Source: a virus. Taken from it: a DNA stretch of 64,000 nt. The number at the start of each line of letters is the position of its first letter. Position 1 is the stretch's first letter. The notes under the pieces are model-generated. The model saw nothing but the letters and a program-made list of their open reading frames with translations. It was not told where the DNA came from and searched no databases. The translations under genes and the position numbers were made by a program. This document shows positions 1 through 58,232 of this stretch, piece after piece. Location of the stretch: IMG/VR virus record IMGVR_UViG_3300035138_000114. The stretch is one strand, 5' to 3'.

Positions 1-7
1 AATATGT

Positions 8-898
8 TCATACTAACTCAAAAAACTCAAATACTTCGTCATTCGGGGGAATTTTGAATTTATCAAAAGGATATTGGTTAAACCATTCTTTCGCTTTGTC
101 CTGATATAAGGCAAAGTAATATTCTAATCGTGTTATTTTATAGTCTTTTTCTCCTTTACGGGTATATCGCCGTAAAGGAATGAAAAAAATTGCTTGTACT
201 TCTTCATATAGCATCGTTGGAACTATACCGACATGATGGTCGTAGAATACTTGTTGTCCTTCCCCTCCGAATTGTTTATTTTTGTCATCTCCCCACACAA
301 ACTTCCCTGTATATGTAGGGTTTTGCAAGATTCTATGGATTGCCTTATAGGATTTTGGGAACACTTGAGTCAAATCCTCAATCGTAAATCTTCCAGGAAT
401 ATCCTTATCTTGGAAGCCTTTTGAAAACGTCGCAAAGAGAGCTAACACTTTAACTGCGGCATTATAATCAGGAGTGATCTCTCCGCATTCACGGGTATAT
501 CCGTAAGCGACTCTTCCGGGAGTCTTCCCTTCTTTTACAGCATATAATTGACCATTATGAAGTGTCAATTTTTGGCTAATTGTTTTTATGCTTAAAGTTG
601 ATGAGTTGCTTGTTTTCGATTGATTTAAATTCGTTATATTCGATTGTGTTAAGTTCTCTATGAAAAACATCAAATCTGGTTCGGGCCTGAACCATTCACC
701 ACAAATATTAAAGTGTCCAAATTTCTGATGGAAATATGTCTCTATTTCCGCTGTCCCTTTTAATTGCTTTAATAACACCAAAGGCTCAGATGCCCCTGTT
801 TGTAATGATTTTAATCTTTTATTAGGAGATGCACTTATTCCGATTTTTATGTTTTTTGTGTATGTCCCTTGAATAAAATATACGTAATTTGTCTCCAT
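8..898 (-). CDS. T5orf172/GIY-YIG-like N-terminal domain fused to a serine-recombinase 'Recombinase' DNA-binding-like domain
   Basis: N-term YVYFIQ..KIGIS..P.KRLKSLQTG..E..FH..F..GEWF; C-term PGRVAYGY...IHRILQNPTYTG, typical of large serine recombinase C-terminal domains; no catalytic resolvase domain. Confidence 0.55.
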   Translation of the reverse strand: METNYVYFIQGTYTKNIKIGISASPNKRLKSLQTGASEPLVLLKQLKGTAEIETYFHQKFGHFNICGEWFRPEPDLMFFIENLTQSNITNLNQSKTSNSSTLSIKTISQKLTLHNGQLYAVKEGKTPGRVAYGYTRECGEITPDYNAAVKVLALFATFSKGFQDKDIPGRFTIEDLTQVFPKSYKAIHRILQNPTYTGKFVWGDDKNKQFGGEGQQVFYDHHVGIVPTMLYEEVQAIFFIPLRRYTRKGEKDYKITRLEYYFALYQDKAKEWFNQYPFDKFKIPPNDEVFEFFELV

Positions 899-1146
899 AG
901 AATCTATGGATAAATTTATTTACATATATTGTCAAGTATTGTCAAGAAATATTTTTATTATTTTTACAAGAGTCTGTAAGTAATGTATTAACAACAACTT
1001 ACAAGATATATGTTTAAAAATAAAAAAAATTCTTGACATTTAACCTATTAATATTTTAGAGTGTTCTTTGTCTTTTCGCAGTATTCTTCCTCCCGATAAC
1101 GATTTAAACACGGGAGATTTAACCACTCCAACAACAGGAGGAGCTT

Positions 1147-2115
1147 ATGTCAGAATATAAACGAATACCATTTGTCCTTAGCGAGGAGACCCGCAAGGTA
1201 CTTGATGCCTATAGTCGGGATTTTGAGCAAGGACTTCCGGCATTACAAGAATTACTCCAATCTGAGCAAGGCGTTATTGAGACCGTCAACTGGGTCAGAG
1301 AGATTGAAACGTTAATTGCCGGAAACAGATTGCAAGTAAAAGCACTACAACAGCTAAATACCCTTTATGAGGGGCGTACCGTAAAAGGAGTCAAACAATT
1401 GGGGATTTTTGACAGACTAAGGAAAGAGATTACGTATGCCCTGGATCATCACCATGACGGGCAAATTTCGATTGATGAAAAGAATTATTTGCTTGCCAAA
1501 TATCGCCCTGAATGGGTTGAAATCACCGATTCTGATGTTATTCCCGCCATTATGAAACAAATCACCGTCAAAATTACCATGCCGTATTTTGTCTATGAAG
1601 CCTTCAATAAATTATTAGAAGAGATCAAGCGGAAATTGGGGGATTCCCCGTATGTCCAGTCGTTTTTTCCAGAAGGTGAAGGTCTCAGAGTGACTTTAAA
1701 GAATTTCTTTAAAAAAACAAACGTGGATAAGCTTTTAACGGTCAAAGACGGTGAAGTTACGGTAATCAAAAATTTAGTCGGCGGTATCTTAAAAATCGGG
1801 GGAGAAATCGAAGGGGCGATATATCATGAAGATGAAGAAAGCAACCGCACTACCGAATATAAATACCCGAAATTTGAAGACTTAGAACACTTGCCAGCGC
1901 AGGCTCCCACAGGTTTCCTGAAATCAGGCGAAGCATATGACATTGTAATTCGCTCAACTGACGGGAATGAAAAGTTTACCATTGTTAAAAACACAGTGTT
2001 TGAACTTGATGAAGGCGAAAACGGTTCTTTTGCTCAGGCGAGTCCTGACGGACCTGTGTTTTATCCGCGCAATTCTGCCGTTGCATGGGAACTTCGCTGT
2101 CGCACGGACATATAA
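1147..2115 (+). CDS. hypothetical protein
   Basis: 322 aa ORF with AGGAGGAG RBS upstream. Confidence 0.6.
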   Translation: MSEYKRIPFVLSEETRKVLDAYSRDFEQGLPALQELLQSEQGVIETVNWVREIETLIAGNRLQVKALQQLNTLYEGRTVKGVKQLGIFDRLRKEITYALDHHHDGQISIDEKNYLLAKYRPEWVEITDSDVIPAIMKQITVKITMPYFVYEAFNKLLEEIKRKLGDSPYVQSFFPEGEGLRVTLKNFFKKTNVDKLLTVKDGEVTVIKNLVGGILKIGGEIEGAIYHEDEESNRTTEYKYPKFEDLEHLPAQAPTGFLKSGEAYDIVIRSTDGNEKFTIVKNTVFELDEGENGSFAQASPDGPVFYPRNSAVAWELRCRTDI

Positions 2116-2142
2116 GATTGAAAACATCTCAAATTATCCGTG

Positions 2143-2274
2143 TCGGCGTGAAGACGCGCCAATTCGATACAGGTACGGGCACTCCGCGAGGACGTTCCCA
2201 CTTGCGGACCCTGTCACCCCTGTACCGAGGTCAGGGAACCGTACTCCCCACAGGTTGGGGAGCCTTATAGGACT
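2143..2274 (+). ncRNA. structured repeat element R1, copy 1
   Basis: Near-identical to 3283-3407, 9094-9240 and 24714-24861(-); covarying stems. Confidence 0.55.
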
Positions 2275-2366
2275 CTGGAATATTCCGCTCACTATTAGTG
2301 AGCATAATTCTAATTAAGAAACAACGGGAACTCTCTCATTGTTTCTTCAAACTAAGGAGCGTTATT

Positions 2367-3269
2367 ATGTCTGGACCAATACCCGTAGCACGGGGTTGTG
2401 GTGAAAGATACGGAGGAATTTATTTAGGTTGCGGGCTTTCTCCGTTCGGATTGCCGTGGAATTATTTCATTGTAGATCCGCCGCTGCCGATCCCCGAAAA
2501 AGATTCACTTATGATATTCCCGCCCGATACTGAGCCAGTTAGCCTACAAAAACGAGGTCAACTCCTTTTTCAAGTCAATCCCGACAAAGAAGATGAACCA
2601 TACCATGTTCTGGACTGGATCGGAGAAGAGCATTACCAGAATGTGGCAGACTTCATAGAAGAAGGTAAACGTTTTGGCATCTCACGGCGGGCAAGTGATA
2701 ATCTTGACTTTTCCAAATTAACCAAAAATAGCCGACTTTTACTTGTCCATCGCCGGGCTTTTATCCTTGAACCAGACGGTGGGGAAGGTTGGTTGAGAGC
2801 AAACTATGAAACCTGGAAATGTCCGTTACCAGAGAAGAAAGACCCGCGAGGCATCTTACCCCCATTAGAAGAAGTATTGGCGATTAAAGAGCGCCACAAA
2901 CCAGAGAACTTTCAACAGCTTAGAGACGGGGAATCTGCCGATTTTTGCGCCGGGCTCTGGTGGGAAGATATTCTTGGCGGGACTCTTATCGCTCTTACCG
3001 AAGTTGACGAGGATAACGGAGATGAACAGGAATTGAAAGAAGTTAATCCTCGGTCAGTTATGCGATCCATGCCTTCGTTTACATACTGGGGAAGGGGACA
3101 ACCTGAGCTTGAGGAACCGCCTATTTATATTCCCGCTGTTTTTGCTTCGTTCCCGATTACGCAGGTAGATGTGGTCAAAGACAAGAATAAAGGGAATGAG
3201 GCGGACGAGAAACGAGTAAACGCTGCTAACCAACAAACCGACATCCCGGTTGTGGTCTGTGAAGAGTAA
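2367..3269 (+). CDS. hypothetical protein
   Basis: AAGGAG RBS then ATG at 2367; long ORF. Confidence 0.6.
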   Translation: MSGPIPVARGCGERYGGIYLGCGLSPFGLPWNYFIVDPPLPIPEKDSLMIFPPDTEPVSLQKRGQLLFQVNPDKEDEPYHVLDWIGEEHYQNVADFIEEGKRFGISRRASDNLDFSKLTKNSRLLLVHRRAFILEPDGGEGWLRANYETWKCPLPEKKDPRGILPPLEEVLAIKERHKPENFQQLRDGESADFCAGLWWEDILGGTLIALTEVDEDNGDEQELKEVNPRSVMRSMPSFTYWGRGQPELEEPPIYIPAVFASFPITQVDVVKDKNKGNEADEKRVNAANQQTDIPVVVCEE

Positions 3270-3282
3270 TCCGCTTATCGGG

Positions 3283-3407
3283 ATAAGGACGTGCCGTATG
3301 GATGCAGGTATTGACACCCTGCGAGGACGGTCCCACTTGCAGGCCCTGTCACCCTTGTATCCAGGTCAGGGAACCGTACTCCCCACAGGATGGGGAGCCT
3401 TACAGGG
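3283..3407 (+). ncRNA. structured repeat element R1, copy 2
   Basis: GCGAGGACGGTCCCACTTGC...GGTCAGGGAACCGTACTCCCCACAGGATGGGGAGCCTTACAGG core. Confidence 0.55.
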
Positions 3408-3484
3408 CTTATTGTGATACATCAACCGACAGATAACGAATATAAGGAATTTAACGGATTACATTGCCATCAGTTACAGGACCT

Positions 3485-3665
3485 GTCGAAAGAAAGCCCC
3501 TTCTATGGCTTTAGCCAAGGGATGAATTTCGACAAAAATTTCTTGATTTTTTAAAAGCGTTGGGGCGTCAACGCATTGGGTAAGGCGGTGTTAGACATCC
3601 ATTGAGTGAGGCAACCGCTGCTTGACCCCAGAATCCCAGGTGCTTCAGCCCTGGGAGTACGTCAA
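3485..3665 (+). mobile_element. non-autonomous IS200/IS605-family mini element (left-end and right-end hairpins, no ORF)
   Basis: Left end AAGCCCCTTCTATGGCTTTAGCCAAGGGATGAAT; right end GAATCCCAGGTGCTTCAGCCCTGGGAGTACGTCAA, typical IS605/tnpB right end finishing in TCAA. Confidence 0.65.
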
Positions 3666-3804
3666 GGATGCTAATATTAATGTGGAGTTAGCTTATAAAA
3701 TTTATACTGCAAGGAGCCGAGGTCGGAAGTGGGTGGCGGGTTAAGAACGTTGAAAAGATACCCAAAGAGGGTGAAAGTCCCGTTTTTAACAGTAGGCTCC
3801 GCAC

Positions 3805-4101
3805 TTGAGGAATAATGATATGGATTTAGTCAACAAAGAATTAACGGTTAAAACAATCGTAGAAGGGGAAATAACTGCCCATCAATTAGTGTCTATTGTT
3901 GCCGCTCAAGGAGTTGACTTCGCTTTACAGTTTATAAAAGAACTTGACTTCCAGTTGGATAATGAAACGTTTTCAATACGGGCATTCCTCTATTTTTTTA
4001 AAGAGATTGAAGGAGTCTCTCCGTTATTTGAACATGGCAACGTTGTCCCTGTTGAAGGGTTAGAAGAGACATGGGAAACATTAAAAAGCTTACTGTCGTG
4101 A
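3805..4101 (+). CDS. hypothetical protein
   Basis: 98 aa ORF ending just before an attC-like site. Confidence 0.45.
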   Translation: MRNNDMDLVNKELTVKTIVEGEITAHQLVSIVAAQGVDFALQFIKELDFQLDNETFSIRAFLYFFKEIEGVSPLFEHGNVVPVEGLEETWETLKSLLS

Positions 4102-4110
4102 ACTGCCTAA

Positions 4111-4235
4111 ACTTAACGTTTCAGGCTTCCTGCTTCATGGTCGGCCACCTGTCCGAAGACATGAACTTTACCAACTCCACAGGCGTTATCGGTTCGGGCT
4201 GTTCCGGTCCTACTGTGTAAAACAACATGTTACAC
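4111..4235 (+). repeat. attC-like site (4098-4232 duplicated at 58098-58232)
   Basis: R'' ACTTAAC ... R' GTTACAC; identity with the 58 kb copy ends at the GTTA box; internal L-box pairing is weak. Confidence 0.55.
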
Positions 4236-4254
4236 CGCTTGGGAAAAGTAGTCT

Positions 4255-5154
4255 ATGAGTTGGGCAAAAGGGCCGGTCAAATGGATAGAGAAACGGGTTG
4301 TGTATATCTCAATCCCGTTTACGTGGAATCTGCCAGACGTGCGTTTGTTCTTGCTGCAAAAGTCGTTCATGTGGGATCGTGCGATGGTTGGTGGCCCGGC
4401 TGTCTACTTAATGCCTGATTTTTTTGCAGACTTGCAACATGTTCGCATCGGGCGCAGTATGCCGGGAGTACTACAACGGGCAAACCCACAGGCCACACGT
4501 ACAACGGCAGGCTGCCCGAATAAATGCGGGTTCTGCGGCGTGAAGCGCATCAACGGCGATTTTGTAGAATTGGAAGATTGGCCGGATCTGCCTGTGCTGA
4601 TAGATGACAATGTATTTGCGGCAAGCCAGCGACACTTCGACAAAGTCATTGACAGGCTTTCCAAACACCTGACGCCAATCACGAAGAAAGGCCACACTGT
4701 AGACTTTAACCAGGGCGTTGACAGTCGGTTGCTTTCAGAATATCACGCGGAGCGCATCGCAGGACTCAAGAAACCCATGATCAGGCTTGCACTTGATAGC
4801 ATGGCCTATGCCGATCAATGGCTGAAAGCGGTTGACTTGCTGCGAAGTGCCGGAGTTGCAAAAGGCAATATTCGGAGCTATGCGCTTGTGGGGTTTAATT
4901 CCGATCCGGCGGAGGCATGGGAGCGTTGCGAATTTGTCGAGAAGCATGTTGACAAGGTTCTGCCGATGTGGTTTCATCCTTTAGACGCCTTGCAAAGCAA
5001 TCAAGTCACGCTTACGCAGAATTCTTTCGGCTGGTCGAAATTTGAACGCCGTAAACTGATGGAGTGGTATTATAAACATAAACGGTTGCAAGCCGGTGTA
5101 ACAATTGCGTGCAAACGACCAAACCCGCGCCGCGAGGTTTTGGTGTTATCATAA
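4255..5154 (+). CDS. radical SAM protein (gene cassette)
   Basis: CxxxCxxC motif GCPNKCGFC; DDN and DFNQG motifs. Confidence 0.75.
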   Translation: MSWAKGPVKWIEKRVVYISIPFTWNLPDVRLFLLQKSFMWDRAMVGGPAVYLMPDFFADLQHVRIGRSMPGVLQRANPQATRTTAGCPNKCGFCGVKRINGDFVELEDWPDLPVLIDDNVFAASQRHFDKVIDRLSKHLTPITKKGHTVDFNQGVDSRLLSEYHAERIAGLKKPMIRLALDSMAYADQWLKAVDLLRSAGVAKGNIRSYALVGFNSDPAEAWERCEFVEKHVDKVLPMWFHPLDALQSNQVTLTQNSFGWSKFERRKLMEWYYKHKRLQAGVTIACKRPNPRREVLVLS

Positions 5155-5199
5155 ACAGCGTACAGGCGCGTGTTTGGCGTCTGACGCATAGCGTTATGC
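5096..5199 (+). repeat. attC site
   Basis: R'' GTGTAAC, L'' TGCGTGCAAAC / L' GTCTGACGCA with extrahelical G, R' GTTATGC. Confidence 0.7.
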
Positions 5200-5226
5200 A
5201 GTGTAGTAAAAAGGGGAACGAATAAA

Positions 5227-5445
5227 ATGACATCTGCTTTTGAGGATATGTTGACAACTCTCATTGAAGAGGGATACGCTATAAAAATAGAACGTGGGGA
5301 ATATATCGGGGAAGACGACTTTGGCGAATCATTTGGGCATGAAATTAAAATTACGGCGTCAAATAATAATGGTTTTGCGGAGTCGGCTGAAGGTATTAAT
5401 TTAACAGATACAATGCAAGATGTTTACTCAATGGTTCCTGAGTAA
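5227..5445 (+). CDS. hypothetical protein
   Basis: ATG shortly after the attC R' box with AAGGGG RBS. Confidence 0.5.
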   Translation: MTSAFEDMLTTLIEEGYAIKIERGEYIGEDDFGESFGHEIKITASNNNGFAESAEGINLTDTMQDVYSMVPE

Positions 5446-5694
5446 TTGCATAATAATTCTAGTTATGCGGTTTTCAACGAAGGTGCAAAAGTGAAAGAAA
5501 AGCGGTGGAATAAGAACGATACGTTCCCCTGGGGCAAGCACAAAGGGGAAACGTTAATCAGTGTCATGCTTCACGATGTCAGATACATTACATGGTGTAT
5601 TGAAAATGTTGCCGGTTTTGTCCTCGACAATGAATCTTACGAAACTTATGAAGCTTTTGCGGATACACCGTATTTAAATTCACACTTGAGGTAA
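5446..5694 (+). CDS. small protein with PWGKHKG motif (DUF3820/exonuclease X C-terminal-like)
   Basis: FPWGKHKGETL....D.RYI.WC motif. Confidence 0.45.
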   Translation: MHNNSSYAVFNEGAKVKEKRWNKNDTFPWGKHKGETLISVMLHDVRYITWCIENVAGFVLDNESYETYEAFADTPYLNSHLR

Positions 5695-5898
5695 ATTTAA
5701 AATAAATTATTTTTTTCTTGACAAATACTCATAAAATACTCATATTGTGAGTATGGAAACTAAAAAACGTATTCAAGGTGATTTGACAGAAAAAGAAATT
5801 CAAACCTGGAAATCTCAAATGAGAAAGGACGGGTTTGAAAAATTTTGGACTTGGATTTGTTGGGTAGTTCGTCAACATATCAACAAGGGGGAATAATC

Positions 5899-6159
5899 AT
5901 GAGCATTAAAAAAGAAGTAACAATCAGTTTTGAATGGTGGACTGATGACCATGGGTGGACTGATGACCATGACAATGAAGAAATCAAACAGAATCACGCG
6001 GAAGCCCTCGAAGAAACTGCAATGGAAAAAATTATCTCTATGATGAAAGAAGGGTTTACGTCAGGAGAACTTGAAGATAATATCAATATGGATGACGACG
6101 ATCCTGAAGAAGGTGTTGGGTATAGCGGGTGGTGGTCATTGAAATGGAAAACCGCATAA
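5899..6159 (+). CDS. acidic hypothetical protein
   Basis: ATG at 5899 after AAGGGGG; stop codon overlaps attC R''. Confidence 0.55.
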   Translation: MSIKKEVTISFEWWTDDHGWTDDHDNEEIKQNHAEALEETAMEKIISMMKEGFTSGELEDNINMDDDDPEEGVGYSGWWSLKWKTA

Positions 6160-6257
6160 CAAAAATTTGCAGTTGACGCAAACCGCGATGTCGAGTTGCG
6201 GTGGTCGCGTCAGGGCTTTCCTGGCGCGGTTTCCGCAACTGAAATTCAGCGTTAGGC
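6154..6257 (+). repeat. attC site
   Basis: R'' GCATAAC, L'' TTTGCAGTTG / L' CAACTGAAA with extrahelical G, GC-rich inner stem, R' GTTAGGC. Confidence 0.85.
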
Positions 6258-6502
6258 AGTCTTTTCCTCCCAGATATTCTTTTGTTCACAGGCGAAATTT
6301 AGATTACTTGTTCTTGGAATTTTCACCACTGTTCCGTAATGTGCTGTCAGTCCCGTGTCAAAAACTGAATTTCAGAGAGATACTCCTTGACAATTTGTCA
6401 TAAAAGTGAACGAAAGGAGTATTGAGTGTACTGTATGAATATTCTTTTATAATAATTTGTATACGTTATAGGTAATATATCGTATTAGCCAATAGCTGGT
6501 GT

Positions 6503-7654
6503 ATGGGACGAAGAAAGATAGCATTTGGGTGGTATGGAGGGAAATACGTTCATCTTGAATGGCTTTTGCCATTATTGCCGCAAGCAAAACATTATTGTGA
6601 GCCTTTTGGTGGGTCTGCTGCGGTACTACTAAACAGGGAACCATCGCCTGTGGAAACATATAATGATATTGATGGTGAAGTTGTTAATTTTTTTCGCATG
6701 CTTCGTGAGCAGAAAGAACAGCTTCTTGAAGCTATCGGTCTCACCCCGTTTTCAAGAGAGGAATTGCGGATAGCTGTCAGTAATAATGGCGGAAAAATTT
6801 CAGATGTAGAGCGAGCACGTCGGTTTTATGTTCGCGCTCGTCAGGTACGGACGGGACTAGCTCAGACGGCAAGTGAAGGACGCTGGGCACATTGCAAACT
6901 GACAAGTCGTGCTGGAATGGCCGGTGCTGTCTCACGATGGCTTGGAAGTGTTGAAGGATTGTCGGAAATCGCCCAACGGTTATTACGCGTACAAATAGAA
7001 AACGCCACAGCGATAGAGGTTATTACACGGTATGATAGCCCAGATACGCTATTTTATTGCGATCCCCCGTATGTTCATGAATCGCGGGCTGATACGAAAG
7101 CCTATGCCTTTGAAATGAGTAATGACGAACATTGTCAATTAGCCAAAATTCTTCACAACGTTCAAGGCAAAGTTGCACTTTCCGGGTATCATTGTGAACT
7201 TATGGATGATCTGTATCATGATTGGAAACATGTCGAATCACCTACCAAAAAAGCTCATTCTACCAATACGCGACCCAATAATTTGAAACAGGAACGTACA
7301 GAGGTACTGTGGATCAATTATCCGCTTGCTGGCGATTCATCAGAACTTGTTAAGAAAGTATTCGAAGACGGACATTTTAAGAATTATTCTGAAATGGCTC
7401 GTCATTTTTATCGAGATCCATCACAATTCAACCGAATAAAAACCGGAGAGCAAACAATAGGCAATCGTCAAATTCGTGAAGAGTTGGAATGGCTTATTGA
7501 AAAAGCTCTACCTGATGGACTTGGGGATGGAAAGTGTTTAGAATGTGGAGAAAAAGTAGAAGCTAATGAATACGGATATTACGGCAATCGTGCAGCAAGA
7601 TTCTATTGCCGTAAGCATCTTCATGAATATTATGCCAAAGGGGGTAAGAATTAA
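6503..7654 (+). CDS. Dam-like (D12 class) N6-adenine DNA methyltransferase with C-terminal HTH/Cys extension
   Basis: WYGGK, EPFGGSAAV, YND, YCDPPY motifs. Confidence 0.9.
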   Translation: MGRRKIAFGWYGGKYVHLEWLLPLLPQAKHYCEPFGGSAAVLLNREPSPVETYNDIDGEVVNFFRMLREQKEQLLEAIGLTPFSREELRIAVSNNGGKISDVERARRFYVRARQVRTGLAQTASEGRWAHCKLTSRAGMAGAVSRWLGSVEGLSEIAQRLLRVQIENATAIEVITRYDSPDTLFYCDPPYVHESRADTKAYAFEMSNDEHCQLAKILHNVQGKVALSGYHCELMDDLYHDWKHVESPTKKAHSTNTRPNNLKQERTEVLWINYPLAGDSSELVKKVFEDGHFKNYSEMARHFYRDPSQFNRIKTGEQTIGNRQIREELEWLIEKALPDGLGDGKCLECGEKVEANEYGYYGNRAARFYCRKHLHEYYAKGGKN

Positions 7655-7663
7655 TTATCTCCA

Positions 7664-7719
7664 CGATAACAAGCAAATTAAGCTGAGTCGAGGGACGCGG
7701 CTTAATTTGAACATTGTAC
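7664..7719 (+). repeat. degenerate attC site
   Basis: CGATAAC-AAG-CAAATTAAGC...GCTTAATTTG-AAC-ATTGTAC; R' lacks the G of GTT. Confidence 0.45.
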
Positions 7720-7870
7720 ATGTCATCAAGTTTTGTGGCAGCATTAAGTTGGGAGCCTTCGTTGGGCGCGTGAGCGCGGGCGTTATATTGACAAGAGCGT
7801 GGTTGCCGCGTTCGTCCTTAAGCATAGCAAAAGATAGAAAGCTTGTCAAGTTTTTATATCAACTTGTTGA

Positions 7871-8686
7871 ATGGATATGAAAAAAGACTTTGCGTCACAA
7901 AGAAAAGGATTTGGAGTACAGGAATGGGCAGAGTATAGAATGAACTTCCAAACAGGCTGTAGACATGGTTGCGTCTATTGTTACGCCCGTGAACAGGCAA
8001 TCCGATTTAAATGGATTTCTACATGGGAAGAATGGGAGACCCCGAAAATCCGGGAAAATGCTCTCAAGAAAAAATTTGGGAAACGGCAAGGCGTTACCAT
8101 GATGCCGACAACCCACGATATTACGCCCGAGAACTGGAAGACCTTCAAGACAATCTTAATCCGACTCCTTACTCCGGGGAATAACGTTTTATTAGTTACG
8201 AAGCCACATCTTTCCTGTATGCGGGAACTGGCAAATTGTTTCGGGCCATATCGGGAGAACCTCTTGATCCGGATTACATTAGGCACTACTGATGATACCA
8301 TAAGAGAAGTATTGGAGCCAAATGCCCCAAGTGTAGGCGAACGGCTTGAGGCATTACGATGGCTTTTTGAAGAACGGTTCAGGACATCCGTGTCATGTGA
8401 ACCGTTATTAGGAGACTCTGCGACATTTAAAGCCATTGTGGAGGCTGTTAAAGCGTATGTAACGGACGATGTTTGGGTTGGATTTATGAATAACCCAACC
8501 AGACGTATTCGGAAAGACCTGTTAAAGGACGAAACGGTTAAACAGGTCTTATCACATATTACACCAGACAAAATTAAAGATACCATCGAAGGAATCCTAT
8601 TGTTGCGGGCGGAGTATGATGCTTTACATAATCCCTCGGTGACAATACGATTAAAAGAGAGTATCACACGTCAGTTGCCTTTATAA
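7871..8686 (+). CDS. radical SAM protein (SplB/DUF5131-like)
   Basis: GCRHGCVYCYA motif; LEP.AP....R..AL and SCEP motifs. Confidence 0.75.
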   Translation: MDMKKDFASQRKGFGVQEWAEYRMNFQTGCRHGCVYCYAREQAIRFKWISTWEEWETPKIRENALKKKFGKRQGVTMMPTTHDITPENWKTFKTILIRLLTPGNNVLLVTKPHLSCMRELANCFGPYRENLLIRITLGTTDDTIREVLEPNAPSVGERLEALRWLFEERFRTSVSCEPLLGDSATFKAIVEAVKAYVTDDVWVGFMNNPTRRIRKDLLKDETVKQVLSHITPDKIKDTIEGILLLRAEYDALHNPSVTIRLKESITRQLPL

Positions 8687-8698
8687 GGAGAGTATGCT

Positions 8699-9103
8699 AT
8701 GTACCAAGCTGTAAAGTTCATTGACTTCTGCTATGCCCACAGGCTGATGGGTTATAACGGAAAATGTTGCAAACTACATGGACACAACGGAAGGCTCGAA
8801 ATTATTGTTGAAACAAAAAATCTTGACTCCTTAAGCCTTTCCGTTGATTTCAGAGACATTAAAAGGACTATGGCAAGATGGGTTGAGACGAATTTTGATC
8901 ATAAAACCATCCTGCGTCAGGACGACCCACTTGCTCCGATATTACAAGAGCACGGACAAGCTGTTACTTGTGCCGAAGAAAACCCCACAGCAGAATATTT
9001 AGCCAAATTGGCTTTTAACTACGGGAAGGAAGCAGGGTTACCTATTATCGAAATCCGGTTTTGGGAAACTTCTTCAAGTTATGTCTGCTACCGGACTTCA
9101 TAG
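8699..9103 (+). CDS. queD: 6-carboxy-5,6,7,8-tetrahydropterin synthase
   Basis: AHRL..Y.GKC..LHGHN, DF, FDH, NPTAE, WET motifs. Confidence 0.92.
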   Translation: MYQAVKFIDFCYAHRLMGYNGKCCKLHGHNGRLEIIVETKNLDSLSLSVDFRDIKRTMARWVETNFDHKTILRQDDPLAPILQEHGQAVTCAEENPTAEYLAKLAFNYGKEAGLPIIEIRFWETSSSYVCYRTS

Positions 9104-9240
9104 CCGGTTATCGGCGTGAAGACGCGCCACACGGATGCAGGTACGGACACCCTGCGAGGACGTTCCCACTTGCAGGTACGGACACCCCTGTACCCAGGTC
9201 AGGGAACCGTACTCCCCACAAGATGGGGAGCCTTACAGGA
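9094..9240 (+). ncRNA. structured repeat element R1, copy 3
   Basis: Longest copy; begins GACTTCATAGCCGGTTATCGGCGTGAAGAC, overlapping the queD stop. Confidence 0.55.
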
Positions 9241-9533
9241 TTTTTATGACAGAAGGAAACTATCTATATAGACCAATCTTTTTTGCTACAGGACGGGCGG
9301 TGATTTTTGAAGAAATACCGGGGAAAAGTGCCCAAATTGTCAAGATTAAAGCTATAGAATTTCATGATAACGGGCAGGCCACATATATCCAGCTTACGGA
9401 AGATGAAACAAAGCTCCTTTATGCCCGGCTTAAGGAGATTATCGAAAATGAATAATACCAGCAGGTTTCAATATTGGCTTTTTTCACAGAGAAAAGTCTT
9501 TCATTTGGCAAAACCTAAGGAGGACAAGACTCT

Positions 9534-10130
9534 TTGCGGAAACCCTACTACAACGTAACGAAAATTTTTTATTCTATCCAAGGAGAAGGTATCTGGACAG
9601 GAACTCCTGCCGTCTTTGTCCGTTTTTCAGGTTGTAATCTTGCCTGTTCTTGGTGTGATACTGATTTTAAAACGGATTTAAAGATCACGGAGCACCAAAT
9701 TTTAAACTGGATATGTGAATTCCCGTCCAGAATACTTATCCTAACGGGCGGTGAACCGATGCTCCAATTATCAGGAGAAGAAGGGTTGACCTTCTTGAAA
9801 AAACTTAAAAATTGTGGCTGGTCTCCCCACATAGAGACAAATGGAACGATTGAAATTCCAGAATCTATCAAAAATTTTCTTGACTGGATAACTGTTTCGC
9901 CTAAAATACCGAATAGCAAAGACCTTCCGTGGCTACAGAAAACAGGAAATGAGTTAAAAGTGGTCTATGAAGGACAGCGGTTAGATCAATATCTAATCAA
10001 AACAGATTTTGAACATTATTGCCTTCAGCCGTGCTCTATGCAGAATACCCAGGAAACGGTCGAAGCGGTCATGAAAAGCCCATTATGGAGACTAAGCTTA
10101 CAAACTCACAAATACCTACACATTCCTTGA
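9534..10130 (+). CDS. queE: 7-carboxy-7-deazaguanine synthase (radical SAM)
   Basis: IFYSIQGEG..G.PAVFVRFSGCNL.C.WCDT, TGGEP, ETNGT, VSPK, LSLQTHK. Confidence 0.93.
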   Translation: MRKPYYNVTKIFYSIQGEGIWTGTPAVFVRFSGCNLACSWCDTDFKTDLKITEHQILNWICEFPSRILILTGGEPMLQLSGEEGLTFLKKLKNCGWSPHIETNGTIEIPESIKNFLDWITVSPKIPNSKDLPWLQKTGNELKVVYEGQRLDQYLIKTDFEHYCLQPCSMQNTQETVEAVMKSPLWRLSLQTHKYLHIP

Positions 10131-10699
10131 CTCCTCAGCTTGTAAGACAGAGCTTACGGGAATTTATCGCCTATATCGGAGACGATCCAGATCGGGAAGG
10201 ATTGATAGAAACTCCGGATCGAATTCTCAGAAGCTGGTCCGAGTTATTTTGGGGCTACCAAGAAGAGCCTGAACGATTCTTTAAACTCTTCACCCAAGAA
10301 GCAGAAAATGACGACCTAGTGGTAATCAGTGGGATTGAATATTTTTCGATGTGTGAACACCACGCAATCCCATTTTTCGGAGAAATGCACATAGGGTATG
10401 TCCCTGACGGGCATATCCTGGGGCTGTCTAAATTCGCCCGATTGGTTAATGTCTTTGCCAGACGGCTGCAAACAGAAGAGCATTTAGTTTCCCAAATTGC
10501 GGATACCTTGATGCAATATTTAACTCCTCAAGGTGTTATTGTGATAAGCTGTGCCAAACATTTATGTGCTTGTGGTCGTGGAGTCAAACAACGAAATATG
10601 AAAATAGGCAAGTCCGCACTACGGGGGAATTTCAAGCAGGATGATGCCCTGAAACAAGAATTTTTTGAACTAATTAAAATCCATCTAAACATGAGGTGA
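10127..10699 (+). CDS. folE: GTP cyclohydrolase I
   Basis: DPDREGL.ETP.R, SMCEHH..PF.G..HIGY.P, GLSK..R, HLC...RG; probable TTG start overlapping the queE stop. Confidence 0.93.
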   Translation: MTPQLVRQSLREFIAYIGDDPDREGLIETPDRILRSWSELFWGYQEEPERFFKLFTQEAENDDLVVISGIEYFSMCEHHAIPFFGEMHIGYVPDGHILGLSKFARLVNVFARRLQTEEHLVSQIADTLMQYLTPQGVIVISCAKHLCACGRGVKQRNMKIGKSALRGNFKQDDALKQEFFELIKIHLNMR

Positions 10700-10773
10700 G
10701 CCTTCTACTAGGTTAGCTCCTCGCGCCCGATTTAATAACAATGTCATGTATAGGTAAATTTATTTGTCCAGCG

Positions 10774-11667
10774 TTACGTTTTTTCATGTGAATCGTCCTC
10801 CTTTTGGGCCTTTTCGACATCTTCAAATTGAAGTTCCGAATGTGGCGAAGACAATTTCATCTGTAAAAGTTCTTCCAGGAACGCCCGTTGTTCATCAGTT
10901 TCATAGAAGATGGTCACATATAGGAGATCCGGAGAGCCTTCATCTTGTCTACCTAACGGTTCTGTCATAGAGCCCCAGTAACTATCATCCCCGTCAGTAA
11001 ACTTATTCCAATCAAAATCTAAAACCTGAAGGTATCGCTTCGCTTCATCCGGGGTAAATGGTAAAGTCTTCATTGCCTGTTCATACGTCAAAGATGAAAA
11101 GATTTCCTGTAAACTCCGGGCTAAACTATACGGATTATCCGGGAATCGGGTAAAATTAAGCTCCATAGACTTTAACGTAGCCTGATCTTTAGAAATTTGC
11201 CCGAAGTTGTAACATAAGGCGTGAGTCATTCCCGCTCCTTGAAAGGCGGGGAGTCTATGGTTGCCATTGACAATTTCGTATTTCCCTTCGACCGCAGAGC
11301 GGGCGACAATTTCTTCTGGTAAAAACTCACGGATTTGGATATTCTCTACTTGCCCGCCATTCTTCATATTTTCAAGAAGTTGTTGGGCTTTATAGTCATC
11401 ATCCTCCTTATAATTCCAATCTGCCAGTACCAACCGGTCTAATTCGACCATGATCAGGCGTTGTAACCAGCCGTGTTGAAAGGCAATGAAAAGTTGCCGG
11501 TATAACGTCTGTTCATTTTCGACGCCCGGCAGAAGGAAAAAGAGAGAAACAATGTCTTGTCGGGACACAAGATATTCCCAAAATTCTTCAATAGTTTCCC
11601 CGTTCTGAGGGAATTGTACTTGCAGATATGCTTTTACTTCTTTTTCTTCCATAGACCTATTTCTCAA
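10774..11667 (-). CDS. ParB/sulfiredoxin-like domain protein
   Basis: YEIVNGNHRL ParBc motif; located in the deazaguanine cluster. Confidence 0.7.
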   Translation of the reverse strand: MRNRSMEEKEVKAYLQVQFPQNGETIEEFWEYLVSRQDIVSLFFLLPGVENEQTLYRQLFIAFQHGWLQRLIMVELDRLVLADWNYKEDDDYKAQQLLENMKNGGQVENIQIREFLPEEIVARSAVEGKYEIVNGNHRLPAFQGAGMTHALCYNFGQISKDQATLKSMELNFTRFPDNPYSLARSLQEIFSSLTYEQAMKTLPFTPDEAKRYLQVLDFDWNKFTDGDDSYWGSMTEPLGRQDEGSPDLLYVTIFYETDEQRAFLEELLQMKLSSPHSELQFEDVEKAQKEDDSHEKT

Positions 11668-12502
11668 GTGAAAAGATTTGGTTCGTATGAAGGGCGGGCG
11701 GTCCTTCTAACTGAGGAGTCTGGTATATCCGATTATCGGACAACCGTGCCCGTACCCGTTGTAATGCCTGATACGGAGTAATTTGCCAGTTTGCCCGTTT
11801 CAAGACGTGTCCCAGGTAATATGAAAATGCTCCCCTGACCTGACGTTTGATCCGTTTCTCTTTCGCCTCTTGATGGGCAGCGCAAGCCGCAAAAAAGACA
11901 TGTCTTATCGAAGAGTGATTGACCGCGCCCGATTCATTAGTATTTTCCAGTGATACGCCTCTTGTCCGGTATTCTATGTCAAGTGGAGGTGGTAAATAAC
12001 GGGTTTTCTCGTAACCATCATCATCCAAAAATGGGCGAGGAGGCCCGCTAAACCCGCCTTCTCCTAATGACCGTGTTCCCGTCCCGGAATGGCAACAATC
12101 GAAAATGACCGTCAACAAGACGCCGGTAGGCAGCATATTGAAATATGTATGGAGGATATCATCTGATAACGGATCATCCCAGTCAAGGTCAGTCGGACAA
12201 AGAATTTCGTCAAGATGGTCTTTTAATTCATCTCCGTCCCGATCCCGAACTTGTGAGCCGTGTCCAGCAAAAAAGAAAACCAGACTATCCCCTTTTTGGG
12301 CGTCTTTGACCAGCCACATTAACCGGTCTTCAATGCCCCGCTTTGTTGCCCGTTCGTTTAATAATACGCGAAGACTTTCTCCAGAAAAACCAAAATGATC
12401 TTGTAGCATCCCCCGCATAACGGCAGCATCCATTGTGCAACCTTGCAGATTCCATGCCGGGTTTCGATATTTGTCAACACCAACAATCAGACCTTTTTTC
12501 AT
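11657..12502 (-). CDS. caspase-family (C14, metacaspase-like) cysteine peptidase
   Basis: LIVGVDKY..L.GC..DA, FFFAGHG, DEILCPTD, IFDCCHSGT, FAAC...Q.A.E, GAFS..L, QTPQLEG. Confidence 0.88.
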   Translation of the reverse strand: MKKGLIVGVDKYRNPAWNLQGCTMDAAVMRGMLQDHFGFSGESLRVLLNERATKRGIEDRLMWLVKDAQKGDSLVFFFAGHGSQVRDRDGDELKDHLDEILCPTDLDWDDPLSDDILHTYFNMLPTGVLLTVIFDCCHSGTGTRSLGEGGFSGPPRPFLDDDGYEKTRYLPPPLDIEYRTRGVSLENTNESGAVNHSSIRHVFFAACAAHQEAKEKRIKRQVRGAFSYYLGHVLKRANWQITPYQALQRVRARLSDNRIYQTPQLEGPPALHTNQIFSLEK

Positions 12503-21690: not shown

Positions 21691-22740
21691 TCATGCGGCG
21701 ACTATAGGCTGCCGTACTCCCTTCTGAAGAATGTTTTTCGCCCCGTTCCAGTCAGCATCAAGTTCGACGCCGCAGGTTCGGCACTGAAACCGTTCTCCTT
21801 TCCGAGAGAGCTTGTCCCTGATTCCGCAGTCGGAACAAGTTTGAGACGTGTATGCGGGATCAATGAACGTCATTGAGATGCCCTCGCATTCACAGCGATT
21901 CGTCAGGCGTTCCAACACCAACGGGTACGTCCAGCGTTGGAGCTTGTTATTAAAGGATTTCCGAATTTTGCCTTTTGATTTGTGTTTGACAGACTTCAGA
22001 TTTTCAACTACCACCGTCTTTACATTCTCAAGTGGAAGCGCATTGACCGTCTGGTTGACAAACTGATTGCGCTCCGTCAAGGCACGAAGGAAGCCTTTGC
22101 TGCCTTGCTGCTTTCGGGCGATTTTCTCGGCATACTGTTCAAAGTCCTTGCCGAATTGTTGACCGTCAGAATTCACCAGCAGCTTTTTATACCCGATGTC
22201 GAAACCTTTCACTGTCCCGGTTTTCTTGGGAGCCGGAGCCTGTTTCTGGAAATACACATCTGCCCAAAAGCCCTTTGCGTTCACTCGGATACGGAGGCTC
22301 TTCTTGAGTGTCCAGCCCTGTTCAAGGAAGCGATTGAAGTGAGCATGTTTCTGGGTCGGAATCTGAAGTTTCAGCTTCTTGCCGATGGAGGACAGGGTAA
22401 TCCAGCAGTCAAATGAATTGACATCCTGCTCAAGCTCAACAAAGCGGCTGTCCAGTTCCATCACACGCTTATTGAAGACGGGTTTTGTCTTCTGCTCCTT
22501 CTTCCGTTGTGATTTGACAATAGCAAGGGCTTGTTTGGCGGCGCACTGCTTCATTCGAGCGGAGAGATAGGTATCAATCCAGGCGGTGTCTTTGACAAAG
22601 GAGCCGGAAAACTGTTCTTGCTCCCACAGGTCGTCAATGCAGAGATTGACCACACGGTTGTACTCCGTGCTGATGTCGAGCAAGGTCTGTTGTTTGCCGA
22701 TATTCGCGTTATTGAGATTGAGCGTTGTTTTTCGTATCAT
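21691..22740 (-). CDS. tnpB: IS607 TnpB RNA-guided nuclease
   Basis: GFDIG, VVVENL, TSQTCSDCG..CRTCG, DADWNGAKNIL; all three RuvC motifs and the Zn finger present. Confidence 0.92.
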   Translation of the reverse strand: MIRKTTLNLNNANIGKQQTLLDISTEYNRVVNLCIDDLWEQEQFSGSFVKDTAWIDTYLSARMKQCAAKQALAIVKSQRKKEQKTKPVFNKRVMELDSRFVELEQDVNSFDCWITLSSIGKKLKLQIPTQKHAHFNRFLEQGWTLKKSLRIRVNAKGFWADVYFQKQAPAPKKTGTVKGFDIGYKKLLVNSDGQQFGKDFEQYAEKIARKQQGSKGFLRALTERNQFVNQTVNALPLENVKTVVVENLKSVKHKSKGKIRKSFNNKLQRWTYPLVLERLTNRCECEGISMTFIDPAYTSQTCSDCGIRDKLSRKGERFQCRTCGVELDADWNGAKNILQKGVRQPIVAA

Positions 22741-52650: not shown

Positions 52651-53472
52651 TTACCTGCGATCCTTATAATAATCCGACTCAATTGTCTTTGGATAGAGAA
52701 AAGACGGGACATTCTCGGAAGAAAAAATTGACGTTTCTCCGTTCAGGAACTGTATAGGAACTTGAGCCTTCCCGTTTTGTAGCTTGGTCCGCTGTGCCGA
52801 CGTGACTCTACCCAAATTCATGTAAATTGCCCGGATACTCCCGTATTTCTGCAAAAGTGACCTTGCGGTCTTTTCTCCGATCCCATGTACGCCCGGAAAG
52901 CGGTTGTCTCCTGTAAGCGCCGCAAGTTGTTCCATTTGTTCAGGTGTCAGCTTGTATGCCTTTTGAAGGTTGGAGACGGTTACATATTCAAACCGAACGC
53001 TCTGAGAAGGACGGGAATAAAGCCCGCAAACTCGTTTTTCTCCGTCTTCTCTGAGAAATGGATATAATCTTGAACCGCCCGCCAATAAAATCATATCCCA
53101 CAACTTGAGTGATCGGGGAATCCATGCGGACAGATAATCTCCGTAAAGAAAACCGGGCTCACAGCGGGAAAAGGCAGCGTTTTTCTCTTCCAGAAATTTG
53201 ATAACGTCAGGAATGATAGTTTTATCCACATCTTTTTGATACCCTGAGTCGGTAAATCCTGGGTATCGCTGGATAATCGTTTCGGCATCTTCAAAGAGAA
53301 CTGCCGTGGAAACGACCGTTGCTATTGCTTCAAAACTCCGGGCAAAGTTTCCTTGCCCGAAATACTGTTGTTTAGCAAAAAATGTCCCGTCAAATAGGCA
53401 AAGGGTCTTTTCAAAGATTAATTTCGGAACTTCGCCTTCTTGCGGGAATAATGGGAGTCTAAATGTGTTCAT
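52651..53472 (-). CDS. 5'-3' exonuclease / flap endonuclease
   Basis: FDG, LTGD..PGV.GIGEKTA..LL.KYGSI..IY.NL (H3TH). Confidence 0.8.
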   Translation of the reverse strand: MNTFRLPLFPQEGEVPKLIFEKTLCLFDGTFFAKQQYFGQGNFARSFEAIATVVSTAVLFEDAETIIQRYPGFTDSGYQKDVDKTIIPDVIKFLEEKNAAFSRCEPGFLYGDYLSAWIPRSLKLWDMILLAGGSRLYPFLREDGEKRVCGLYSRPSQSVRFEYVTVSNLQKAYKLTPEQMEQLAALTGDNRFPGVHGIGEKTARSLLQKYGSIRAIYMNLGRVTSAQRTKLQNGKAQVPIQFLNGETSIFSSENVPSFLYPKTIESDYYKDRR

Positions 53473-57440: not shown

Positions 57441-58097
57441 TTTATGACTCCTTATCTGTTATAACGGGGAAACAGGAATAATAGGCTCTCAACTTCTCCC
57501 GTCAGAAAAGAAAACAAGGGGAGAAGGGTAGGAATGGCGAAATTCCTTGCTCTGTAAGCAATGAACTCCGAGAAACGTCAAAAAAGTTCTTTGCCCTTCT
57601 CTCTTGCTTTTTCATCATTTTGATACTATAGGCAATACCAATAGTCAGGCGGAAGAAAAAACGTCTTAAAACGCAAATTTGAGCGCCTTAGAGCTATATT
57701 TTTTTCACGGTTTTCATGACCGCTGATTCCGCCCGTTATTAAAGCATTACGATTTTTTATGGAACCGACTTTGCCCGCAATTTCGACCAGGATACCGTTT
57801 CTTTTTCTGGCGTAACCTTCGTAAATGGGCTTTCCTGTTACTGAGAGATAAATTGACCTCTTCTTTTGGCATGATTATTCATTGACTAAACTCCCTGACA
57901 TCGGGATAACTTCATAGTCTCTGTCATCCAGATCAGGATGTTTGCCTACTATAAATACTTGACATTATTTTCACAGTCTTATAAAATTACTACAGTTCAT
58001 TGACAAGATAGATGGTTGAAATTTACAACCCTGAATTTCGTAAAATCTTGTAGGTCGTATGACAAGGACGAACGCGATAACCAAGCTCTTGTCAATA

Positions 58098-58232
58098 TAA
58101 CATGTTGTTTTACACAGTAGGACCGGAACAGCCCGAACCGATAACGCCTGTGGAGTTGGTAAAGTTCATGTCTTCGGACAGGTGGCCGACCATGAAGCAA
58201 GAAGCCTGAAACGTTAAGTTTAGGCAGTTCAC
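58098..58232 (-). repeat. second copy of the attC-like 135-bp segment (4098-4232)
   Basis: One mismatch seen over 135 bp; directly follows the ASCH gene. Confidence 0.8.

Follow-up and report, generated by a model that had tools for sequence, protein, structure and literature searches.

Clusters of attC sites lacking integrases (CALINs) are defined by two or more attC sites spaced by less than 4 kb without a nearby integron integrase (Cury et al. 2016, PMC4889954). They are known from virulent phages, in which the attC sites recombine with the integrase IntI1 and the cargo includes DNA methyltransferase (MTase) genes (Qi et al. 2023, Front Microbiol, PMC9892861). It has also been shown experimentally that the integron integrase (IntI) inserts cassettes at secondary GWT sites, called attG, in bacterial genomes (Loot et al., bioRxiv 10.1101/2022.09.11.507474; also Nat Microbiol 2024, as cited in PMC12901181). 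The same preprint proposed that the attC may later be lost through replication slippage, which amounts to domestication. In this study, we describe a block of gene cassettes that interrupts a repeat, here named E169, in a 64,000-nt stretch of DNA (the window) from an uncultivated wetland phage. The window corresponds to positions 2942-66941, read on the minus strand, of the 132,054-bp IMG/VR virus record IMGVR_UViG_3300035138_000114.

The block, at 4230-7782 of the window, is probably a CALIN that entered the phage DNA through an integron integrase acting in trans from a bacterial host, a reading to which we assign a probability of about 0.8. IntI is placed in trans because the phage has no tyrosine recombinase: no match to TIGR02249 (IntI) or PF00589 (tyrosine recombinase) was found across the 132 kb, whereas the controls were positive, and the genome does not hold a complete integron composed of intI, an adjacent attI and a cassette array. 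The target of the insertion is E169, a 169-nt intergenic repeat with two inverted copies about 54 kb apart, and its parts are as follows.

4098-4228, plus strand: left part of E169, the insertion target; it contains the phage-repeat portion of the stretch 4111-4235

4229-4235, plus strand: left junction G|TTACAC, where E169 supplies the G and cassette A opens with TTACAC; homology to E169 stops within GTTA

7782-7819, plus strand: right part of E169, identical to the uninterrupted copy at 35 of 38 positions

58064-58232, minus strand: uninterrupted copy of E169 (the empty site), which reads ..GTGTAAAACAACATG|TTATATTGAC..

When the parts at 4098-4228 and 7782-7819 are joined, they are identical to 58064-58232 on the minus strand at 165 of 169 positions, with sharp ends on both sides. 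Since the uninterrupted copy shows an unbroken target, the whole block is one insertion at G|TT, in which 3,553 nt separate the G of a GTT from its TT (..CATG|TTATAT..); four letters (GTTA) are common to both sides at the joint. The left junction coincides with the start of cassette A as set independently by a metagenome contig (L055, described below), and the right junction, G7782|TTATAT, is the G|TT of an attC-type 3' end (..GGGCG|TTATAT). Read from the sequence, this junction pattern is the expected signature of IntI recombination of an attC with a secondary double-stranded site, and the insertion is placed precisely between the G and WT of a GWT in non-att DNA, as at attG sites. The order within the block is cassette A, the attC site wA, segment B0, cassette B1, the attC site wB, a 250-nt spacer, the MTase gene and a decayed attC-like region. 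An initial annotation of this DNA had proposed an array of four attC sites; in its place stands a single insertion of 3,553 nt, in which two attC sites are intact and others have decayed.

E169 itself has no match in INPHARED or Rfam, and its fold is not significant (z -1.1). An unrelated gene lies upstream of each copy, which begins within a few bases of that gene's stop codon and, in the interrupted case, overlaps it. No ATATAAC, which would make the right half of E169 the start of a further cassette, occurs downstream on the plus strand. The likeness of the target to attI is confined to short suggestive similarities to one natural attI junction, that of the Desulfobacteraceae genome G003. 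A contig from the probable source run that joins 4228 directly to 7782 was considered as an array-free strain occurring alongside the phage and was rejected; it led to the second E169 copy of the same genome. The junction 19-mer and the 30-mer of the loose end are absent from IMG/VR. Occurrences of the 19-mer, GTGTAAAACAACATGTTAT, in 49 JGI metagenome contigs were rejected as an unrelated repeat family of metagenome Ga0256839 or chance matches. The Ga0256839 family is an element of at least 150 nt on dozens of contigs (L194-L241), which has no relation to the phage and contains GTGTAAAACAACATGTTAT by chance.

The two intact attC sites, both recovered by covariance models and by hairpin fold, are as follows.

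5096-5199, plus strand: attC site wA, 104 nt, with R'' GTGTAAC and R' GTTATGC

6154-6257, plus strand: attC site wB, 104 nt, with R'' GCATAAC and R' GTTAGGC

The sites wA and wB align with each other without a gap. Their bottom strands fold into long imperfect hairpins that beat shuffled sequences, with z of -2.8 for wA and -4.05 for wB, which bears out the folds proposed at both places. Three covariance models of attC (R1, R2 and R3) were made in this analysis, and their E-values are rough. R1 was built from wA, wB and three metagenome-contig sites that adjoin homologous cassettes. Searching species-representative genomes with a DNA pattern of the conserved attC 5' arm gave 43 loci, and R1 finds attC arrays in many of them, including those of Desulfobacteraceae, Ca. 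Vecturithrix, Sedimentisphaerales, KSB1 and Latescibacterota. Integrases score over the curated TIGR02249 cut-off in four of five array genomes, and in two genomes R1 matches lie directly beside intI with divergent strand, which is the canonical integron layout. To avoid the circularity of the phage-derived R1, R3 was made from 25 sites only, all on the array strand, taken from 80 kb of intI-adjacent arrays in two bacterial metagenome-assembled genomes (MAGs). With R3, wA scores 67.4 bits (E 4e-14) and wB 61.3 bits (E 1e-12); the R2 scores are 84.1 and 76.2 bits, respectively. The next R3 matches in the window stand at about 13 bits with E >0.5 and include 7665-7719 and an unrelated place at 52992-53067. 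The sites wA and wB are the sole significant attC-model matches in the whole 132-kb genome. The initial annotation had named an attC covariance-model scan and a search of the rest of the genome for intI as checks; the former gave significant matches at wA and wB, and the latter found no intI in the 132 kb.

Other evidence on the two sites concerns their structure. In a crude motif-plus-energy scan, wA and wB were in the top four on their strand, the other two being short hairpins nested inside them, and about 40 more low-scoring candidates were given per strand. In the attC structure, unpaired spacers separate an R stem from an L stem; the L stem carries two bulges of one base each on its 5' arm, spaced by 6 bp, and is capped by a variable loop. 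Across 49 distinct attC sites, 90.6% of cells are paired and compensatory changes are found in 21 of 27 pairs, whereas slid partners are only 31-44% paired. The AAC and GTT triplets of wA and wB are invariant, and the boxes follow RYYYAAC (R'') and G|TTRRRY (R'); some of the degenerate R/Y positions deviate, as they do in the aligned bacterial sites. The first bulged base of the consensus is G on the top strand. In attCaadA7, the first bulged base is C. Rfam has no attC family and gave no match to the two sites. By sequence and fold, wA and wB are to be regarded as genuine integron attC sites. With a spacing of 955 nt between them and no integron integrase nearby, they fall within the definition of a CALIN.

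The cassettes and their genes are as follows.

4230-5193, plus strand: cassette A, with a radical-SAM-like open reading frame (ORF); its start is complementary to its own R''

4255-5154, plus strand: radical SAM (rSAM) ORF of 299 aa with CxxxCxxC, which runs into its own attC; weak match to Pfam Radical_SAM, and phrog_9298 at 6e-20

5194-5462, plus strand: segment B0, 269 nt, which starts with TTATGC and is followed by TTATGC again; ORF at 5227-5445

5463-6251, plus strand: cassette B1, with ORFs at 5491-5694, 5747-5896 and 5899-6159

6252-7663, plus strand: MTase segment within the 3,553-nt insertion, composed of a 250-nt non-coding spacer and then a gene for a Dam-like D12 N6-adenine DNA MTase

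6503-7654, plus strand: Dam-like MTase ORF of 383 aa with a C-terminal extension; PF02086 at 1e-23 and phrog_56 at 5e-65

The boundary motifs GTTACAC (4229-4235) and GTGTAAC (5096-5102), GTTATGC (5193-5199) and GCATAAC (6154-6160), and GTTAGGC (6251-6257) lie where the initial annotation had placed them. It had also stated that the cassette-boundary rule, in which the start of a cassette is complementary to its own R'', holds twice. For cassette A the complementarity is stronger than was stated: the start G|TTACACCG pairs with its own R'' flank over 9 nt without a gap and over 4 nt more after a 1-nt bulge. The second pair did not stand as proposed, since the 6154 site pairs only weakly with the 7-mer at 5193 (the region has 67 GTT sites, and the chance of such a match is about 0.23). 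The wB R'' flank is complemented at 14 of 14 positions by G|TTATGCGGTTTTC at 5462 (5462-5475 versus 6147-6160; chance about 2e-5), which on this match is the true partner of wB. The last ORF of B1 ends with a stop codon inside the R'' of wB. For the segment from 6252 to 7670, the start matches R'' over 4 nt only and the rule does not hold. Two further pairings were rejected. One joined GCCTAAAC at 4105 with GTTAGGC at 6251 and is not meaningful, because GCCTAAC/GTTAGGC is the consensus R box of the family. The other joined GTTATCG at 4185 with CGATAAC at 7664 over 7 nt only, which is compatible with chance.

The cargo agrees with what had been proposed, namely a radical SAM gene, small ORFs and a Dam-like MTase. 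No homologue of the 72-aa ORF of B0 was found. The ORF at 5491-5694 carries the ExoX-like_C domain (Pfam PF20600), and a promoter scan gave a promoter-like site at 5718-5746 within B1. A profile search of the PDB with the rSAM family found nothing. The MTase is below the cut-off of TIGR00571, and the PADLOC call is a type II/orphan MTase. Its relatives in IMG/VR show at most 67% identity and are not syntenic; no attC matches were found among them, save one at the end of the contig L014 (31 bits, E 4e-4). The MTase is plausible anti-restriction cargo that probably protects the phage DNA from restriction, and the rSAM partner is probably linked to it in function.

The other two places at which the initial annotation had seen weak attC sites gave different results. 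The stretch 4111-4235 gave no attC-model match at E<=10 with filters off, and its folds (z -0.7 and -1.0) are no better than those of shuffled sequences; it is the left arm of E169 and not an attC. On the right, 7664-7719 (7665-7719 in some matches) scores 10.8-13.1 bits with E of 0.12 to 2, which is noise level, but the wider region around it ends in an attC-like manner and its G|TT is the right junction. This region is as follows.

7664-7788, plus strand: decayed or composite attC-like region, with an R''-like CGATAAC, a 12-bp local hairpin and an L'-R'-like 3' end, GGGCGCGTGAGCGCGGGCG|TTATAT

Over its 125 nt there is no L''/L' pairing, and the region fails end-to-end pairing. Its interior at 7730-7764 is 83% identical over 35 nt to the interior of an attC of L055, and its 3' end resembles the L'-R' halves of attC sites on another metagenome contig, L057. 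It therefore reads as what may be a decayed or composite terminal attC.

Two small perfect palindromes were found exactly at cassette starts.

4215-4235: mini-palindrome GTGTAA-N9-TTACAC at the left junction

5448-5468, plus strand: mini-palindrome GCATAA-N9-TTATGC at the boundary of B0 and B1, with a non-significant attC-model score of 4.6 bits

Only three G|TT palindromes of this 6+9+6 form occur in the 132-kb genome on both strands. In each of the two at cassette starts, the left arm has the same sequence as bases 1-6 of R'' in the following cassette. Over 291 kb of arrays from bacteria and metagenomes, such palindromes show no enrichment. Candidate origins for the two are chance, an attC that has lost its hairpin by deletion, and a target preference. 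The perfection of the one at 4215-4235 may be chance because its left arm is native E169, whereas the one at 5448-5468 may be the relic of a hairpin-deleted attC or a former secondary target site.

Cassettes related to those of the phage are present elsewhere. Cassette A is 90% identical in DNA to 725-1630 of L055, a 2.7-kb JGI metagenome contig. The homology begins exactly at G|TTACAC (4228/4229), weakens within the attC and does not reach the flanks, which are unrelated. On L057, a cassette with an rSAM homologue stands next to one with a D12 MTase, with three attC sites. A homologue of the ORF at 5899-6159 (68% identity) is the single ORF of a cassette between two attC sites on L243. Complementarity at cassette boundaries also holds in L057, L055, L135 and L243, and wA and wB are 55-64% identical to each other and to the sites of about 100-110 nt on L055 and L057. 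L135 (IMGVR_UViG_3300035670_008917) is a separate IMG/VR contig with an array of four attC sites at 19-1549 on the minus strand, with small ORFs and a cassette for an N4/N6 DNA MTase; the boundary rule holds there over 10 nt at two junctions.

The rSAM family is mainly known outside cassettes. We detected 917 homologues, and at least 479 IMG/VR loci, overwhelmingly phage-borne. Among 80 IMG/VR rSAM loci, attC matches were found in one, and there they do not adjoin the rSAM gene. In the non-cassette pairs of L244 (prophage-like, in a Desulfovibrio sp. MAG) and of the P0005 contig, which lie in phage replication modules, the rSAM homologue begins 4 nt before the stop of a DNA MTase gene (C5 or Dam), which suggests a conserved functional pair of MTase and rSAM. 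No attC-model match was found in the Desulfovibrio prophage locus L244/L245, the one locus scanned. Because the family is mostly phage-borne and normally stands beside MTase genes without attC, the rSAM gene of the cassette probably derives from a phage gene. It was proposed in the initial annotation that the phage captures host integron cassettes as a gene source. This proposal is only partly supported for the same reason: the insertion is of integron type, but no donor or host was found, the cargo is of phage type and some attC sites have decayed.

The block lies in the middle of a phage genome. A gene for the large terminase supports a real phage genome.

28327-30420: large terminase gene

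The completeness of the 132,054-bp record is 95% (CheckV). The array in it is without an integrase, in agreement with the initial annotation. Close relatives of the phage were not found by INPHARED megablast of 1-12000 of the window, and in IMG/VR none was found through the ORFs at 2298-3269 and 3805-4101 or the large terminase. The region is contained in only one sequencing run, the probable source of the record. Directly to the right of the insertion, a second radical SAM gene is located at 7871-8686. It is unrelated to the cassette rSAM; the 'radical SAM mobile pair protein B' and PA0069 families match it weakly, and none of these matches reaches its cut-off. The ORF at 21691-22740 on the minus strand matches the PHROG transposase families phrog_506 and phrog_12300. 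Another repeat family, of about 136-140 nt, has copies at 2136-2271, 3271-3406 and 9104-9239 on the plus strand and at about 24714 on the minus strand; its cores are highly conserved, copies stand on both sides of the cassette region, and it is unrelated to attC and E169.

Insertion by a host integrase would imply the following course of events. During infection of an integron-bearing host, IntI would join the folded terminal attC of a circular cassette, or of several cassettes in one circle, to an attG-like double-stranded site. Alternatively, cassettes may have been added one by one at the same left junction. Some of the attC hairpins would have decayed later, so that cassettes became fused and their genes were fixed in the phage. 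The genes of the block are oriented as the flanking phage genes and would probably be read through from phage promoters. The part at 5194-6251, between the intact attC sites, should remain excisable by host IntI. Because attC sites have decayed, the block points to a past event followed by domestication and not to ongoing capture.

Several points weigh against this reading. At the MTase segment, the R'' CGATAAC mismatches the start TTAGGC at 6252. Any entry in one step through 7664-7788 must have been followed by decay, as neither the fold nor the score of that region is attC-like. To the right of the cut, positions 6-9 of E169 are TTGA and not CRGM, a motif defined only for IntI1 in E. coli hotspots. 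The arrays used to train R3 were found with a pattern derived from the two phage sites, which remains a caveat even though the training sites are mostly other members of these arrays. Linkage on the left side rests on the original assembler because the left junction passes through a 131-nt repeat arm. Neither an integrase nor a donor integron nor a host was identified, and the action of IntI would be read from the junctions only; the origin in a host integron is unproven because the cargo genes look phage-derived.

Other explanations were weighed against the insertion of a CALIN by host IntI. It is quite unlikely that E169 is a dedicated attI-like landing pad, with one filled and one empty copy, that recruits host IntI while phage-type anti-restriction cassettes circulate among phages. 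The insertion does lie in a two-copy repeat, the rSAM and MTase cargo is typical of phages, and L135 offers another phage-database contig whose four-attC array has an MTase cassette. The native target GTGTAA-N9-G|TTATAT also has an inverted R-box-like arm 9 nt to the left of G|TT, which after insertion forms a perfect 6-bp palindrome with the TTACAC of cassette A, in the same 6+9+6 geometry as at the B0/B1 boundary. However, an arm match of this kind arises by chance at roughly 1/16 to 1/256, no such palindrome is present where cassette A begins in L055, and the bacterial arrays show no enrichment of it. In addition, E169 has neither detectable relatives in INPHARED or Rfam nor a significant structure, a single insertion event is documented, and the decay of attC speaks against continuing turnover. 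The broader idea that phage anti-restriction genes, namely an rSAM and DNA MTase pair and small ORFs, travel between phages as cassettes through host integrases, with E169 as a two-copy acceptor analogous to attI, is also unlikely.

The block might instead derive from an integron or CALIN of the host that was copied through recombination, whether homologous or illegitimate, without an integron integrase. Phage genomes are mosaic, the four letters GTTA at the joint could be used by microhomology-mediated joining, and this possibility was raised for phage CALINs by Qi et al. (PMC9892861). Both junctions, however, are at a canonical crossover, the left one at the start defined by L055 and the right one at the G|TT of an attC-type 3' end, and such a double coincidence makes copying very unlikely. 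It is highly improbable that the hairpins are terminators intrinsic to the phage or repeats like miniature inverted-repeat transposable elements (MITE) or repetitive extragenic palindromes (REP), or that the block is an assembly chimera with host DNA. An attC is able to act as a weak terminator, and the record is a metagenome assembly whose region is found only in the probable source run. Nevertheless, a model from bacterial integron arrays picks exactly these two sites in 132 kb, and a terminator and promoter scan found no T-tract terminators on the plus strand at them. Against a chimera, one unitig covers the left part of E169 from 4203 on, the whole block and the phage backbone on the right to beyond 8000, with a depth of 55x that resembles the 45-49x of the flanks, and the GC content of the block is like that of the rest of the phage.

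In conclusion, we found what is probably a base-precise natural example of integron cassettes that entered a phage genome at a secondary G|TT site. A CALIN in a phage is of a kind already described in 2023 (PMC9892861), and the picture of how integrons work is unchanged; this case adds a well-resolved example. To the known phage CALINs it adds an internal empty site, exact junctions, a cassette shared with an unrelated contig and visible decay of attC, so that domestication after capture would be documented. The cassette pool of wetlands and sediments includes genes of phage type, as the rSAM family is usually coupled to DNA MTases. A phage-type cassette present at 90% identity in an unrelated context therefore implies that phages and integrons exchange genes in at least one direction.

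Compared with known systems, the block resembles the phage CALINs of Qi et al. (PMC9892861) in having at least two co-oriented attC sites in a phage genome, no intI and DNA MTase cargo, and also in having several ORFs between some attC sites and boundary motifs of GTT type. It differs from the published cases in that a paralogous empty target is kept in the same genome, and because the target before insertion is preserved in this copy, both junctions are defined to the base. The carrier also differs, being an uncultivated wetland phage of 132 kb for which neither INPHARED nor IMG/VR gave a close relative, with an array that is partly decayed and attC sites whose identity is predicted from sequence. 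With the attG insertions of Loot et al. it shares the entry of cassettes outside attI and attC, at G|WT in double-stranded DNA. Those cases are single cassettes in bacterial chromosomes, whereas here a block of several cassettes lies in a phage repeat without CRGM. The phage attC sites have the same architecture as those in the sedentary integron arrays of a Desulfobacteraceae MAG (G003) and a Ca. Vecturithrix MAG (G002), and share with them the motifs ..TAAC-AA..TGCA-N3-GAC.. and ..GCGTTA... A model made from the attC sites of these arrays recognises those of the phage. The arrays of these two MAGs adjoin intI and their attC sites are mostly 86 or 137-140 nt long, whereas those of the phage are 104 nt. 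The non-cassette rSAM and MTase pairs of the Desulfovibrio prophage-like locus and the P0005 contig belong to the same rSAM family, with 53-63% identity. In those pairs the two genes overlap by 4 nt, whereas in this phage each gene is in cassette form, with other cassettes between them.

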